Shown piece by piece: positions 42,643 to 50,680 of a DNA stretch of 64,000 bases. Both the position numbers and the translations under genes were made by a program. Source of the stretch: Planctomycetota bacterium (lineage in GTDB: Bacteria > Planctomycetota > UBA1135 > UBA2386). The DNA lies in NCBI GenBank assembly GCA_965228735.1, contig OZ245838.1, positions 1,632,001-1,696,000 on the forward strand. The letters are read 5' to 3'. Each line of letters starts with the position of its first letter. Within the stretch, counting starts at the first letter, position 1. The notes beneath the pieces were generated by a model that saw only the letters and a list, made by a program, of their open reading frames with translations, made no database searches and was not told the DNA's origin.

Positions 42643-43425
42643 GTGACGTGTGACTTCGGGGTCTGGTCGACGGGGAAGGTCCTCAGCAACGAGGAAGCCG
42701 GCGAGCTGTATGGGCAGCTCTGCGATGGGATCACCGACGGCGTGCTGCCGACTCCGGCGATCGAAGCGTTCTATGGCGAGTTGACGGCGATGCATCCCGA
42801 CCTCGACGACATCCCGGATGACAAGGTCGACGACCTGGAGCAGAGCCCTTGGAGTTGCGGTCTCGGCCGATCTTCGGGCCACGTCCTCATGAACTGCCGT
42901 TGGTCGCGTGCGGAATACTGCTACGGGCTGATTCACGAGCTGGCCTGCAAGCACGGCCTCACCTTCTTCGACCCTCAGTCTGGGGTGGTCCACGATCCGG
43001 ATCTGGCGAAGCCCTCGACCCGGCGGCAGTGCGAAGGACTCCCGTGGAACGGTGACGGCAACGTGATCCGCCGGATCGCGACCGCGGGCTCGGACATATC
43101 TCGACCGATGGTCGTGGACTTCCAACTCGCCTTGCCGGACCGCGGCAGCGCGTTCGCCGCGATGCTCGAGGCCCGCAACCTCGGCTATACCTGCGAAGTG
43201 GACCAGGACGACGACAGCGAGACGTGGACCTGCACGTGCTCGCGGAGCATGACGCTCGACTACAACACGCTGCTCACGACCCAGGCCGAACTGGACCTCG
43301 TCGCCGAGAAACACGGCGGGAAAAGCGACGGCTGGGGCACGTTCGGCAACGCCCCGGCCGAGCCAGCGCCACCGCCACGCCAAGCGTGGTGGACGTTCTG
43401 GTGGTCGTGGTTCCTGCCGAAGTAG
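42643..43425 (+). CDS. Two-domain protein with C-terminal RraB-like (ribonuclease E inhibitor) domain
   Basis: GSDISRPMVVDF...LVAEKHGGKSDGWGT matches the RraB pattern; acidic N-domain with SPWS and HGLTFFDPQ. Confidence 0.72.
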   Translation: MTCDFGVWSTGKVLSNEEAGELYGQLCDGITDGVLPTPAIEAFYGELTAMHPDLDDIPDDKVDDLEQSPWSCGLGRSSGHVLMNCRWSRAEYCYGLIHELACKHGLTFFDPQSGVVHDPDLAKPSTRRQCEGLPWNGDGNVIRRIATAGSDISRPMVVDFQLALPDRGSAFAAMLEARNLGYTCEVDQDDDSETWTCTCSRSMTLDYNTLLTTQAELDLVAEKHGGKSDGWGTFGNAPAEPAPPPRQAWWTFWWSWFLPK

Positions 43426-45926: not shown

Positions 45927-47816
45927 CTACGCCTCGCCGACGGACGAGACCGGGCTGTGCGGCGCCATCACGGGCTCGCGCGGCAGGCGCAGGTAGAACG
46001 TCGTGCCGACGCCCTCCTCGGAGTCGAACGACACCGTGCCGCCGTGCGCCTGGACGATCTCGCGCACGATGTGCAGGCCGAGGCCGCTGCCGCTGATGCC
46101 CGAGCTGTTGCTGCCGCGCGAGAACCGGCGGAACAGCTTCGGCCGGTCCGCCTCGGGGATCCCGATGCCGTTGTCGCGCACGTAGACCTGCCACATGTCG
46201 TCGCCGTCGTCCTCGCAGCCGACCTCGATGCGCGGCTGCCGGTCCTGGGCGGCGAACGACACGGCGTTGCCGATGAGGTTGAGCAGGACCCGCTTGAGCC
46301 CCCACGCGTCGGCCTCGATCGTCGGGCCCTCGACGATCTCGACGTCGACGTCGGCCACCTCGAGCTCGAAGTGCAGGGTGCGCACGACCTCGCGCGCGAC
46401 CGCCGCCACGTCGCACGACTGGAACTCGAGCCGCACGCCGTCGTGATCGAGCTGCGAGCTGTCGAGCAGGTCGCTGACGAGCTTGCGCATCACGTCGATG
46501 CCCTCGAGGCCGTGCTGCACGGCCTCCTTGACCTTCGCCGGCACCTCGCCGAGCGTGCCACGCTCCACGAGGTTGAGCATGACGCCGAGCGCGCCGAGCG
46601 GGCGCTTGAGGTCGTGCACCGCGGTCTGCGTGAACTCGACGAGGTCGTGGACCTTCTTCTCGTAGCGGCTGCGCTCCTCGTCGAGCTCGCCGAAGCGTTG
46701 CGCGAGTTCGAGGTTGGCCTGGACCGAGTGGTCGAGCATCTCGGTCGCGCCCTCCTCCTCGGGTGCGGCAGGCGCGCTCTCGGGCGCCGCAGCGTGGGCC
46801 GCGTTGGCGGCGTCGACGAGCGCGTCGGCGGCCAGCTTCGGTGCGTCGACGAGCTCGTCGAGGTCGATGTCGAGGTCCTCGTTCGTGAGCACCTCACCGC
46901 TCGGCAGCGGTGCTGCCGGACCCGAGACCTCGTTCAGCGAGTAGTCGAGCTGGAAGTCCTCGTCCGTGGCCTCCTCGGCCGTCGCGCCAGGAGTGCTCGG
47001 CATCTGCTGCTGCAGCTCGTCGAGCAGCTGCGGCGAGTCCCAGAACGGATCCTCGAGCGCGGGGTCCGCGGCGGCCGGCGATTGACCGTCCGGGATCTCG
47101 ACGCGCACCTGCGGCGTCTCGTCGATCGGGGTGACCTCGCGCGCGCGACGGGCCTCGTCGCACGCCTCCCACAGCCGCTGCCGCGCCTCGTCGGCGACGG
47201 CGCGCGCGTCGAACTCCTCGTCGAGCTCGAGTCGCGCGACCTGGCCCTCGATGAGGCGCCCGGCCGCTTCGACGAACGCCTCGAACACGCCGTGGCCCTC
47301 GGTCGCGACCGTCGGGAACGCATCGATGTCGTCGCGGAACCGGAAGTGCTGGTCGAGCTCCGGCTCGGACAGGATGTCGTCCAGATCGCGCTTGTTGTAC
47401 TGCATCACGATCGGGATGTCCGCGGACGTCGTCCGGATCGTGCTGAGGTTGTCGCGCATGCTCTGCAGCGACTCGAGGTTCTCCTGCAGGCGGCTCGCCT
47501 GGCTGTCGACGACGAACACCACGGCGTCCGCGCCCTGCAGCACGAGCTGCCGCATGAGGCGATACTTCGGCTGCCCGGGAACGGTGTAGCCCTTGATGCG
47601 GATCTTGAACCCGCCGATCGTCCCGAGGTTGATCGGCAGGAAGTCGAACATCAGCGTCGAATCCTCTTCCGTGCTGATCGACAGCAGCTGCACCTCGTTG
47701 CGCGGGCTGAAGATGCTGTGGACCTGCTGCAGACTCGTCGTCTTGCCGCCCACGCCGACCCCGTAGTACACGAGTTTGGCGTTGATCGTCCGTTCCGCGA
47801 CGTTGATGTAGCCCAT
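45927..47816 (-). CDS. MglA-family small GTPase fused to a HisKA/HATPase_c histidine kinase
   Basis: INAKLVYYGVGVGGKTT, TLMFDFLP, YTVPGQ, QYNKRDL; acidic linker; H-box AVHDLKRP, N-box NLIGNA, DNGIGI, GSGLGL. Confidence 0.93.
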   Translation of the reverse strand: MGYINVAERTINAKLVYYGVGVGGKTTSLQQVHSIFSPRNEVQLLSISTEEDSTLMFDFLPINLGTIGGFKIRIKGYTVPGQPKYRLMRQLVLQGADAVVFVVDSQASRLQENLESLQSMRDNLSTIRTTSADIPIVMQYNKRDLDDILSEPELDQHFRFRDDIDAFPTVATEGHGVFEAFVEAAGRLIEGQVARLELDEEFDARAVADEARQRLWEACDEARRAREVTPIDETPQVRVEIPDGQSPAAADPALEDPFWDSPQLLDELQQQMPSTPGATAEEATDEDFQLDYSLNEVSGPAAPLPSGEVLTNEDLDIDLDELVDAPKLAADALVDAANAAHAAAPESAPAAPEEEGATEMLDHSVQANLELAQRFGELDEERSRYEKKVHDLVEFTQTAVHDLKRPLGALGVMLNLVERGTLGEVPAKVKEAVQHGLEGIDVMRKLVSDLLDSSQLDHDGVRLEFQSCDVAAVAREVVRTLHFELEVADVDVEIVEGPTIEADAWGLKRVLLNLIGNAVSFAAQDRQPRIEVGCEDDGDDMWQVYVRDNGIGIPEADRPKLFRRFSRGSNSSGISGSGLGLHIVREIVQAHGGTVSFDSEEGVGTTFYLRLPREPVMAPHSPVSSVGEA

Positions 47817-47861: not shown

Positions 47862-49250
47862 TCACCGGACTCGTCTGAACGGATCCCGTTGCACCGTCGG
47901 GAGCAGCACCGCCCGGTAGGGTTTTCCAGCGCCGGTGACCGCGGCGAACGCGGCGTGAGCGTCCGCGGCGGTCACCGCCGCGACCGCCGCGGCGTCGATC
48001 CCGGCGGCCGCCGCCCGCATGGCAACGAGCACCCGACCCGGCGCGACGACGGCTGTCGAGTTCCACGGCAGTGGCGCGTTCTCCGACACGATGACGTCCC
48101 GGGCCCGGGCGAGCTCCTTGCTGCTCGGCGGCCGGTTGTCGAGGTCGTCGAGCAGCTGCTCGATCGCCGCAAACGCCTTGTCCGCGGCGTGACCGGTGTG
48201 CGCGCGCCGCAGCAGGACGAGCACGGGCTCGTGGTCCGCCCACGACCAGGCGACGAACGGCGCGCGGGCCCTGACGTGGACCCCGCGGATCACGGCCGGC
48301 GTGCGTGCCAGCGCGCGCTCGCGGGCGACCTCCACGAGCACGGCGAGCGCTGCACCGCGAAGCTCGCGCGGCACGGCGAACGCGACCGCCGCGAACGGGC
48401 CGTCGACGCGGGAGTGTGGGATGCGTTCGGGCTCGGTGGCGTGCTCCGTGCGAGACGGACTGCGCGTGGCCGCTCCGACGACGTCGGCGAAGGATTGGCC
48501 CGGCGTTGCCGACGGCGGCACCGTGACCGTGAGATCCAGGGGCCGCACTCCCGGGGGCAGCTCGCCGAACACCCGGTACGTCACGCCACCGCGCCACGGC
48601 AGCAGCGCTCGCACGCGCGCGGCCGTCACATTCTGCAGGGCGGCCGCGCTGCCGTGCAGGCCGCGATCGCCGGTCGCTCCGTCGGCGAACGCGCGGCGGG
48701 CGCGGCTCTGCAGCATCGAGCCCGGATACAGCCATTCGGCGTCGTCCGCGACGAGCGCGGCCCGCGCGATCTCGAGCTCGATGGCGTCCGTCGTCGGCGA
48801 CTCGGCGTCGACGTCGCCGCGGACCAACGCCTGCAGGAACGCGACCCCCGCTCGCCACTCCGAGGGGCGAACGGTCACGAAATGGACCGCGCTCCGATCC
48901 CGCACCTGGCTGCCGCTCTGTCGGACCCCGGGGACCGCGGCCCGCGCGCGCGCGCTCCGGCACGCCGCGACGACGCGGGCGACCCCGGCCTCCGCCGCAT
49001 CGTCGTCGAGCACCCCGTGCGGTTCGAGCATGGCGAACACCAGAGTGCCGCTGTCCGGGACGGCAACGATCTGTGGTGTGACGACCCGGCCGACCAGTGG
49101 TGACCCGGGATTCTGGGCCGGCCCAGAATCCCGGGCGGGCGCCGGTTCCTGTGCCGGCGGCGACTCCTGGGCACGGACCACGGCCGAACCCGTCAGCGGC
49201 GAAGCGCAGACCAACGACCAGAACAACGACGACGAACGGAATGGAGTCAT
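47862..49250 (-). CDS. Secreted protein, probable inactive M16 peptidase-like fold
   Basis: Signal peptide; GSAAALQNVTAARVR, SKELARAR and AVAAVTAAD resemble M16 motifs; no HxxEH. Confidence 0.5.
   Translation of the reverse strand: MTPFRSSSLFWSLVCASPLTGSAVVRAQESPPAQEPAPARDSGPAQNPGSPLVGRVVTPQIVAVPDSGTLVFAMLEPHGVLDDDAAEAGVARVVAACRSARARAAVPGVRQSGSQVRDRSAVHFVTVRPSEWRAGVAFLQALVRGDVDAESPTTDAIELEIARAALVADDAEWLYPGSMLQSRARRAFADGATGDRGLHGSAAALQNVTAARVRALLPWRGGVTYRVFGELPPGVRPLDLTVTVPPSATPGQSFADVVGAATRSPSRTEHATEPERIPHSRVDGPFAAVAFAVPRELRGAALAVLVEVARERALARTPAVIRGVHVRARAPFVAWSWADHEPVLVLLRRAHTGHAADKAFAAIEQLLDDLDNRPPSSKELARARDVIVSENAPLPWNSTAVVAPGRVLVAMRAAAAGIDAAAVAAVTAADAHAAFAAVTGAGKPYRAVLLPTVQRDPFRRVR
49104..49135. 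repeat. Perfect 32-bp palindrome inside a CDS
   Basis: CCCGGGATTCTGGGCCGGCCCAGAATCCCGGG equals its own reverse complement. Confidence 0.95.
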
Positions 49251-50632
49251 CAGCGTTCCCGGAGTCTGCCGTTCTCGATGGCGAGCACGCGATGCGCGAC
49301 CGCGCGCGCGAGGTCGAGGTCATGGGTCACGAGGACGAGCGCGAGGCCGCGCTGCGATTGGAGCGCGAGCAATTCGCGCAGCACCGCCGTCGCGGTCGCG
49401 CGATCGAGCGAGGCCGTCGGTTCGTCGAGGATCAACACGTCGGGCTCCACGGCCAGCGCCCGCAGGAGCACGGCCCGCCGCTGCTCGCCGCCGGACATCG
49501 TCGCGCCGACCTGCGCGAGCACGCGGCCGTCGATCTGCAGCGCGCGGCCCGTCGCTTCGAGGTCGAACGTCGTGGTGCGCGCCTCGCGCACGAGCGTCCG
49601 CAACGTCATGCCGGGCGTCATCGAACCGAGCGCGTCCTGCGGACACAGCTGCACGGCCGGGCGGCGCCCCGGCCGTTCGATCGTGCCGGCGTCGGGTTCG
49701 AGGTGACCGGCGAGCAGGCGCGCGAGGGTCGTCTTGCCCGCGCCCGACTCGCCGACGATCGCGACGATCTCGCCGCGTCGCAGTTCGAAGTCGACGCCAA
49801 CGAGAATCGGGCGGGCCCCGAACGACCGCGCCACCGACCGCATGACGAGAACCGGCTCGGCGCCGAGGTCGGCGCTCGTGATCCGCTCCGGCCACGGGGC
49901 GAGGTCGAGCTCACGACGTTCGAACACGCCGTCTCGCTCGGTGTGAACCGCGGCGTCGAGGTCGCGCAGCAGGCGATCGTCGTGCGTCGCGAGCAGCAGC
50001 GCGCTGCCGCGGGCGAGCAGCTCGCGCAGTTGCGCGACGAGGTCGTCGTAGCTGCCGCCGTCGAGGCTGGCCGACGGTTCGTCCGCGAGCACGAGCGCCG
50101 GCCGCCGCAGCATCGCCATCGCGATGAGCACGCGCTGGGCCTGACCGCCCGAGATCTCGTGGCGCCGCCGGATCGCCACGCCGGCCTCGACGCCCAGTTC
50201 CGCGAGCGCGGCGCCGACCTGCTCGGGCGCGGCTCCCGTGGCCGCCCTGATCTGCACGCCCACCGGCGTCAGCGGGTCGAGCACGGCGAGCGCGTCCTGG
50301 GCGAGGAAGAACACCTCGTTGCGGCGGAACTCACGGTCCACCAGTGCGGCCCGTTCGGCTTGCGCCACACCGGAGCCGGGGGAAGTCGTGTGCTGCGAAC
50401 AGGACACCTCGCGCCCACCCACGCGGACACTCCCCGTCGTTTCGGCCTGCTCGAGCACCCCGAGCAGCGCCATCAGCATCGATGTCTTGCCGCACCCGGA
50501 CGGCCCGTAGAGCGCCGCGGCCTCGCCGCTGGCGAGGTGCATCTCGGGCAGCCGCACGGCGAAGCCATTGGGGCGCCGCAGCGCGAAGTCCTGGACCGCC
50601 AGCACCGACTCCACGGCCCGAGTGGATGACAT
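49250..50632 (-). CDS. Dual-domain ABC transporter ATP-binding protein (peptide/nickel DppD/F-like)
   Basis: Two Walker A (GPSGCGKT, GESGAGKT), ISGGQ/MSGGE signatures, two DEP motifs. Confidence 0.92.
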   Translation of the reverse strand: MSSTRAVESVLAVQDFALRRPNGFAVRLPEMHLASGEAAALYGPSGCGKTSMLMALLGVLEQAETTGSVRVGGREVSCSQHTTSPGSGVAQAERAALVDREFRRNEVFFLAQDALAVLDPLTPVGVQIRAATGAAPEQVGAALAELGVEAGVAIRRRHEISGGQAQRVLIAMAMLRRPALVLADEPSASLDGGSYDDLVAQLRELLARGSALLLATHDDRLLRDLDAAVHTERDGVFERRELDLAPWPERITSADLGAEPVLVMRSVARSFGARPILVGVDFELRRGEIVAIVGESGAGKTTLARLLAGHLEPDAGTIERPGRRPAVQLCPQDALGSMTPGMTLRTLVREARTTTFDLEATGRALQIDGRVLAQVGATMSGGEQRRAVLLRALAVEPDVLILDEPTASLDRATATAVLRELLALQSQRGLALVLVTHDLDLARAVAHRVLAIENGRLRER

Positions 50633-50680
50633 CGGCACGGCTTTCGCAAGGACCTGACGTTCCCCCGTATAGTCATGACC

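Follow-up and report, generated by a model that had tools for sequence, protein, structure and literature searches.

A gene on the minus strand of the window (the whole stretch of planctomycete DNA analysed here, 64,000 nucleotides) encodes, in a single open reading frame of 629 aa (47816-45927), an MglA-type G domain followed by the HisKA and HATPase_c domains of a histidine kinase. The fusion is real, conserved and apparently unstudied, and joins known parts in what appears to be a new, cross-phylum arrangement with a coupling helix of its own. Its likely consequence is that a small-GTPase switch activates or silences a kinase, a direct connection from G-protein to two-component signalling.

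Organisation of the fusion gene

The gene is laid out as follows.

45927..47816, minus strand: whole gene, with G domain, helix/strand extension, acidic linker, stalk, HisKA, HATPase_c and tail (from the open reading frame and Pfam)
47232..47816, minus strand: MglA Group 1-type G domain, aa 1-195, with GxGxGGKTT (G1), T54, TVPGQ including Q82, and NKRD
47658..47660, minus strand: codon 53, TCG (Ser), where an intrinsic arginine finger is expected
47082..47231, minus strand: fusion-specific extension, aa 196-245, with a conserved helix (204-224) and a predicted strand (236-240), pLDDT 78-95
46755..47081, minus strand: variable acidic linker, aa 246-354, mostly of low model confidence
46635..46754, minus strand: conserved stalk helix, aa 355-394, pattern LLxxAVxSNxExAxxYxEL, specific to G-domain-bearing kinases
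46443..46640, minus strand: HisKA/DHp domain, aa 393-458, with His401 at 46614-46616
45975..46310, minus strand: HATPase_c domain, aa 503-614, with N, G1, F and G2 boxes intact
45927..45974, minus strand: C-terminal tail with a conserved P-x4-H-S motif (155/173 subfamily members)

A preliminary description, made from the letters alone, had proposed a fusion of an MglA-type GTPase with a histidine kinase, and this is borne out by three Pfam matches above cut-off (Arf, residues 65-179; HisKA, 393-458; HATPase_c, 503-614) and by homologues that share the layout. Residues 1-194 align with the MglA proteins of Thermus thermophilus (E 6e-47) and Myxococcus xanthus (4e-46), so that the alignment previously described as essentially gapless over some 190 residues holds in its extent, with one or two single-residue gaps. 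T54, Q82, N141-K142-x-D144 and His401 are all present, the serine codon at position 53 reads as had been reported, and the kinase, with its domains over cut-off and its motifs preserved, is intact. Maximum hydropathy over 19 residues is only 1.1 and lies within the core of the G domain; there is therefore no transmembrane segment, in agreement with the earlier description. The GC content of the gene (69.3%, against 69.4% for the genome) and its GC3 (95%) are those of a native gene. Single contigs from three public runs span the 2.5 kb region with zero differences, these contigs being possibly the source of this very DNA. We rejected an assembly or frameshift artefact, given that a full-length search recovered 119 full-length homologues and that 46 of 47 fetched relative genomes hold both domains in one open reading frame, the remaining locus being cut by a contig end. 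As a minor observation, the tail motif after the ATPase domain often ends in ADL and recalls the conserved tail of conservon kinases.

Spread and conservation of the planctomycete subfamily

The 119 homologues are 52-71% identical to the window protein, and the best 120 matches of the full-length search (self included) all possess the same three domains, their named sources being Planctomycetota or unassigned bacteria. Among 250 sampled genomes of the window's class, 58 carry the fusion (matches below E 1e-60, counted by hand from the match list): 49/55 in the window's own family, 8/8 and 1/1 in two others, and 0/186 among the remaining genomes. MglA-like matches are more widespread: 198 of the 251 class genomes have them.

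Residue 53 of the best 120 sequences is Ser in 115, Gln in three, Ala in two and Arg in none, which settles the comparison of homologues at this position that had been called for. Arg53 is likewise found in none of the fusions from the 47 genomes fetched (of 58), and is absent from 173/173 members of this sensorless subfamily that have a kinase domain. The remainder of the catalytic apparatus is preserved: 30/30 diverse members share G1, T54, D58, TVPGQ and NKxD in the G domain, and H401, D402, P406, N513, N517, D548 and the glycine boxes in the kinase. At H+4, all 173 subfamily members have R, K, Q or S. Threonine or asparagine at H+4 is associated with phosphatase activity in histidine kinases, and since neither occurs here the subfamily may consist of kinase-only enzymes.

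A wider family across phyla

We place the planctomycete fusion as one branch of a wider family of MglA-stalk-(none/GAF/PAS)-kinase(-REC) proteins that reaches the Acidobacteriota. Pfam annotation of 33 representatives identifies G domain-kinase proteins that either lack an insert or carry GAF, PAS, GAF plus PAS, or PAS with a C-terminal receiver. Two Acidobacteriota loci encode MglA-GAF-HisKA-HATPase proteins in which Arg53 is intact, the long form also occurs in other families of Planctomycetota, and named carriers include Geothrix campi (WP_257307322.1), Geothrix sp. PMB-07, Holophaga, Thermoanaerobaculales and other Planctomycetota. A scan of metagenome loci with one family member (P0135) as query recovered, besides the query's own locus, 65 matches with a kinase only. 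In a tree of 97 G domains, a quick version in which the stand-alone sequences are a hand-picked subset of matches, 27 stand-alone MglA proteins (the window genome's own included) are separated from 70 fused domains with SH-aLRT 99, and the window's subfamily forms a clade at SH-aLRT 100.

Across 397 proteins with G domain and stalk, Arg53 is present in 201/204 insert-bearing (GAF/PAS) forms with an aligned residue, against 2/183 sensorless forms. However, a link between loss of GAF/PAS and loss of Arg53 is not established (2 to 5 independent pairs; sign test p 1, with column 53 remaining in the tree that was used), and we do not claim a correlation because the independent events are too few. 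Because most relatives with the G domain-stalk-kinase module keep Arg53, the R53S change is best viewed as a trait of a derived branch and not as a design principle of the module. Consequently, the earlier suggestion that a slow- or non-hydrolysing G domain is the essence of the design lacks support in that form. Within the subfamily, residue 53 drifts among Ser, Ala and Gln, which looks like loss rather than a selected serine.

The stalk and the extension

The segment between G domain and kinase had been described as an acidic linker of about 190 residues. Around 110 variable acidic residues do lie there, and are much fewer in many relatives, but the segment also contains the conserved helix 204-224, the short, hydrophobic, predicted strand 236-240, and the stalk, a 35-residue conserved helix before the His box that spans approximately residues 358-400 and is continuous with the DHp helix. 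Where a GAF or PAS domain is inserted, it follows the stalk, which stays on the G-domain side.

With a stalk profile built exclusively from 30 planctomycete sequences, 190 of 215 other G domain-plus-kinase proteins exceed 5.5 bits (166 of these above 10 bits; 25 at or below 5.5), whereas none of 91 kinases without a G domain, chosen for their likeness to the window protein, exceeds 5.5 bits (maximum 5.0). Related G domains without a kinase give no positive stalk score at any of the 8 such loci among 30 loci, and in a profile scan 20 of 28 G-domain proteins without a kinase, many of them fragments, lack the stalk. Because it is present in proteins that combine both parts and missing from kinase-only and mostly from G-only proteins, the stalk seems to travel across phyla with the combination and not with either part, a distribution that is what one would expect of a coupling element. 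A search of the ESM Atlas with the extension-stalk region of an acidobacterial member gave no lead (best feature score 0.77, all TM < 0.4).

Structure models and the MglB-binding surfaces

AlphaFold2 models of the monomer improve from pLDDT 73.7 and pTM 0.45 with 74 close sequences to pLDDT 83.2 and pTM 0.71 with 142 diverse sequences, and in the latter strands emerge at residues 3-5 and 236-240. By arithmetic from the definition of pTM, two blocks of 240 and 266 residues (out of 629) whose placements were unrelated would have a ceiling of about 0.42; because the observed value exceeds it, the diverse-alignment model is confident about the relative position of the two blocks, in which the G domain is placed against the stalk and kinase. 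The G-domain model superposes best on MglA-GTPgammaS from an MglB complex (6izw_A; Z 25.6, rmsd 1.8 A, 189 aligned residues), and slightly worse on GDP-form MglA (Z 22-24, rmsd 2.3-2.6), a preference that we read as a property of the model and not as evidence of nucleotide state.

MglB is described, in the excerpts of three papers covered here, as contacting MglA in three ways: its two alpha2 helices meet beta2 (L55, F56, F57, F59), its N-terminal strand pairs with beta0, and its acidic C-terminal helix lies at alpha5 (K181, K185) and the beta2-beta3 loop (PMC3199381, PMC6785124, PMC11016934). The lysine site of the MglB C-terminal helix (K181; PMC6785124) is K or R in 19/27 stand-alone MglA proteins and V, T or A in 23/25 subfamily members (mostly hydrophobic in fused domains generally), while the neighbouring residue is F181 in 68/70 fused domains and Leu in 24/27 stand-alone MglA proteins, where Phe is not among the top residues. 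Two further residues of stand-alone MglA, P20 and N28, are replaced as well (by V/I/C and S, respectively), and L55, F57 and F59 of beta2 are kept in the subfamily.

Covariation places the pairs 182-215 and 178-215 within the top 50, which fits an extension helix placed on alpha5. Eight of the top 15 couplings between G domain and stalk (for example 55-363, 56-360, 62-367 and 4-371) fall on beta0, beta2 and the hairpin, where 1.8 are expected and 23 clade-preserving re-pairing controls reach at most 4, in an underpowered analysis (about 106 effective sequences) whose enriched surface was picked after viewing the list. No single G domain-stalk pair rises above the control maximum, and a surface fixed from the wording of one paper (beta2*, beta2, beta3, alpha2) collects 3 of the 15 pairs against 0-4 in controls, with no enrichment. 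A built-in mimic of MglB is best treated as a lead.

Genomic context

As had been stated, no mglB/Roadblock or response regulator gene adjoins the fusion gene: the nearest receiver domain lies approximately 95 kb away (among 60 receiver-domain matches in the genome), and the genome's only two Roadblock genes are 4.7 Mb away. A search of the genome for mglB and a canonical mglA, proposed in the preliminary description, found both at that one distant locus. The canonical mglA is flanked by the two Roadblock genes, has Arg53 intact and is 42% identical to the G domain of the fusion; with this low identity and a place in a separate clade, the fused domain was rejected as a recent duplicate of it. 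The locus sits downstream of TPR and DUF4388-TPR-PQQ genes (G000:C1:6367165-6373622, L135:5166-11623; order DUF4388-TPR-PQQ, TPR, Roadblock, mglA, mglB-like with an acidic tail), and its MglA has a long Ala/Gly/Arg tail, whose final hydrophobic segment may serve as a membrane anchor. A search for Roadblock genes detected them in 56 of 58 fusion genomes against 0 of 18 tested from a family free of MglA matches, in both cases among kin that are not independent.

Upstream of the fusion, M16-peptidase-like and ABC-ATPase genes are conserved within the window's family only, and another family has other neighbours. Because its neighbouring genes differ between families, the fusion gene is, as far as sequence can tell, an orphan kinase. 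A functional operon was rejected as an explanation of the locus, the neighbours being family-specific and a Pfam scan of representatives of the conserved neighbours detecting no receiver or Roadblock family. Receiver genes lie directly upstream at three acidobacterial fused loci, all of one lineage; at the other fused loci read by eye, no receiver or Roadblock was recognised directly upstream. One acidobacterial locus (L042:7138-11442) has an operon-like array of two single-domain receivers, an Arg53-intact MglA-GAF-kinase and a second GAF kinase. In the window, the product of the gene immediately upstream (47862-49250, minus strand) is without a Pfam or PDB match and resembles a degenerate M16 peptidase-like fold in the Atlas (score 0.96, 152-160 shared features), 49250-50638 encodes a dual ABC ATPase, and these two are the upstream neighbours conserved within the family. 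Another gene of the window (42643-43425, plus strand) encodes a C-terminal RraB domain behind an unannotated N-terminal half.

A possible mechanism and its alternatives

The reading that we favour, and to which we would give an even chance, is that the G domain binds guanine nucleotide and docks on the stalk of the kinase dimer, likely where MglB would bind, such that nucleotide state gates the kinase. The gene encodes a soluble histidine kinase whose N-terminal MglA-type domain likely binds GTP/GDP and is predicted to fold back, in a fixed arrangement, onto the conserved stalk, itself continuous with the phospho-acceptor helix. Together with the extension helix and the extra strand, the paired helices of the stalk would then occupy in cis the three MglB-type surfaces of MglA (the alpha5 pocket, the beta0 edge and the beta2 face). 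A GTP-driven shift of beta2 could be read as a change of stalk register that switches autophosphorylation, with some unlinked response regulator as the probable phospho-acceptor. The contact between G domain and stalk, even if fixed, could also be purely structural, without switching.

For the subfamily that lacks Arg53, a slow or latched switch would be expected, because MglA R53A hydrolyses less and MglB works through the Arg53 loop: in the parts of these papers covered, R53A lowers both intrinsic and GAP-stimulated hydrolysis and keeps MglB binding (PMC3199381), and MglB is reported to act by moving the Arg53 loop into the active site (PMC6876712). MglA R53A still exchanges nucleotide with RomX, according to the portion consulted of a further study (10.1101/2024.02.20.581209). 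Loss of Arg53 would thus leave the sensorless subfamily slow to hydrolyse and presumably GTP-bound until a partner resets or displaces it, the genome's own Roadblock/MglB proteins being the most plausible candidates. A broader proposal, which is tentative and as a whole somewhat doubtful, is that the Planctomycetota and Acidobacteriota share a hitherto overlooked class of 'G-protein-gated histidine kinases', in which the stalk helices and the tethered helix and strand serve as an in-cis MglB mimic and effector (and as GAP where Arg53 survives), making a Ras-type switch a direct input to the phosphorelay; the planctomycete branch would have dropped both GAF and arginine finger, leaving a latched switch reset by outside partners.

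Several alternative hypotheses may explain the same architecture. The G domain might be a nucleotide-locked docking module for Roadblock/MglB or for MglA effectors, placing or activating the kinase at the pole with no cycling. The universal loss of Arg53 among the 173 sensorless kinases, the preserved hydrophobic residues of beta2, the retention of MglB binding by R53A in the excerpt covered (PMC3199381), and the canonical mglA with its flanking Roadblock genes, together with the frequency of Roadblock genes in fusion genomes, are all compatible with docking, yet Q82 and T54 are invariant and most family members retain the full catalytic set. Moreover, a stalk covering the beta2 face would compete with MglB binding, and shared descent and the canonical mglA locus account for the co-occurrence of Roadblock genes; on balance we consider this hypothesis rather unlikely. 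Signals might also flow in the reverse direction, the kinase being upstream and its phosphorylation state controlling the G domain or the MglA/MglB module, by analogy with the conservon kinase, which is proposed to act on GTPase regulators without an encoded response regulator (PMC13343842, PMC4316618, in the sections covered). Relatives with GAF or PAS own candidate sensors, and no regulator gene adjoins the window gene. However, the subfamily has neither GAF nor PAS, and therefore the G domain region is its only candidate input, while relatives with a C-terminal receiver, or with receiver genes just upstream (the three loci above), point to ordinary phosphorelay output, such that reverse flow appears improbable.

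A G domain that senses the GTP/GDP ratio or (p)ppGpp independently of any polarity machinery would be in keeping with the invariant G4 and G1 motifs and the likely slow hydrolysis. For MglA, the passages of the source covered report an affinity for GTP analogues about 100-fold below that for GDP (PMC3199381), and therefore occupancy would be sensitive to the ratio. Metabolic sensing is nevertheless decidedly improbable in our view, as every lineage in which the fusion was found also has canonical MglA/Roadblock, and a sampled family lacking MglA/Roadblock also lacks the fusion (0/40; Roadblock 0/18), with the caveat that kin are not independent. Lastly, hydrolysis could be intact through a substitute basic residue, either K84 in cis or a residue supplied in trans by the second G domain of a dimer, as in Roco proteins; K84 is present in 120/120 best matches and 30/30 diverse members, and dimerisation of the kinase would bring two G domains near each other. 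However, K84 also stands beside an intact Arg53 in relatives (13/45 other fused domains have K84), and R39, the other candidate, varies among members; neither is supported as a substitute finger, and we regard such rescue as very improbable.

Relationship to known systems

The fusion shares with Group 1 MglA (M. xanthus, T. thermophilus and the orphan paralogue SofG) the Ras-like MglA fold with beta0, the TVPGQ motif with Q82, T54, NKRD and the hydrophobic face of beta2. It differs in carrying a kinase (629 aa and three Pfam domains, against a single domain of 150-240 aa), in the replaced alpha5 lysines, in being uncoupled from mglB, which usually but not universally lies within four genes and whose Roadblock relatives here are both 4.7 Mb off, and in having Ser where Arg53 is conserved, according to the parts of the survey covered, in all Group 1 members (PMC4316618), with R in 0/120 homologues of the fusion. 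Having no Arg53 and more than a single domain, it would fall outside strict Group 1. That survey of prokaryotic Ras GTPases excluded sequences longer than 240 aa (PMC4316618, as far as covered), and one of its supplement files might list long proteins of the MglA clade.

By its HisKA domain with a phospho-acceptor histidine and a HATPase_c domain with N, G1, F and G2 boxes, the fusion can be classed as a class I kinase and as neither a conservon nor a Roco protein. It shares the DHp and CA folds and a long signalling helix before the His box with class I soluble sensor kinases (the catalytic cores of HK853, ZraS and CusS), and is distinguished from them by a G domain as input and by R, K, Q or S at H+4; among the 25 NCBIfam matches listed, no model exceeds its cut-off. 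Roco proteins (Roc-COR, LRRK2-like) also hold a G domain and a kinase in one chain, and the G domain is thought to regulate the kinase. Unlike the histidine kinase of the fusion, however, the Roco kinase is a Ser/Thr kinase, and Roc is followed by COR and usually accompanied by LRRs; Pfam detects no COR or LRR family in the fusion protein at E <= 0.01, and by structure it is closest to MglA.

Conservons (CvnA kinase, CvnB Roadblock, CvnC and CvnD GTPase) likewise combine, in one pathway, a histidine kinase with an MglA-family GTPase that has no arginine finger, have no cognate response regulator in the locus, and can add a GAF input (CvnF). They are separate operon proteins, with a Group 2 GTPase (GTPGQ) and a membrane-bound kinase proposed to act upstream of the GTPase (PMC13343842, PMC4316618, in the sections covered), whereas the fusion is one soluble chain from a single gene, with a Group 1-type domain (TVPGQ) and no Roadblock or evident CvnC gene nearby. 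The loci of Rup GTPases in Group 1, where a histidine kinase or diguanylate cyclase is a neighbour, also link a small GTPase genomically to signalling output, but involve another GTPase family, separate genes and a missing glutamine (PMC4316618, in the portion covered).

The literature that we covered, in which subscription journals are sparsely represented, contains no description of an MglA-histidine kinase fusion, in line with the earlier statement that no characterised protein of this architecture is known; there, MglA-family GTPases meet two-component signalling only via separate proteins (Frz/RomR, conservons and Rup loci). A single chain of G domain, coupling helix and kinase makes the direction of signalling, so far only proposed for conservons, testable in one tube. 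Within the family, members that have or lack Arg53, and that have or lack GAF, PAS or REC, can be compared, and its named Geothrix members (e.g. WP_257307322.1) are more accessible than an uncultured planctomycete.

MglA/Roadblock modules are widespread in uncultured Planctomycetota, and several related forms were encountered. Stand-alone G domains of the fused type (about 220 aa; L257, L258, L260, L263 and L265) occur in other Planctomycetota without stalk or kinase, with the extension helix kept and Arg53 intact. Longer proteins of 475-540 aa (L259, L261 and L262; P0168, P0174 and P0177) also have a fused-type G domain without stalk or kinase, two of them with a GAF match. MglA-like genes number five in each of two Acidobacteriota genomes (G251 and G252, L136-L143), and several of them encode a long C-terminal extension without a stalk. 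Lastly, stand-alone MglA proteins of Desulfobacterales type (L107:8001-8612, L109:8001-8612 and L112:5222-5827) have Leu or Gln at position 53, and are exceptions to the arginine rule of Group 1.
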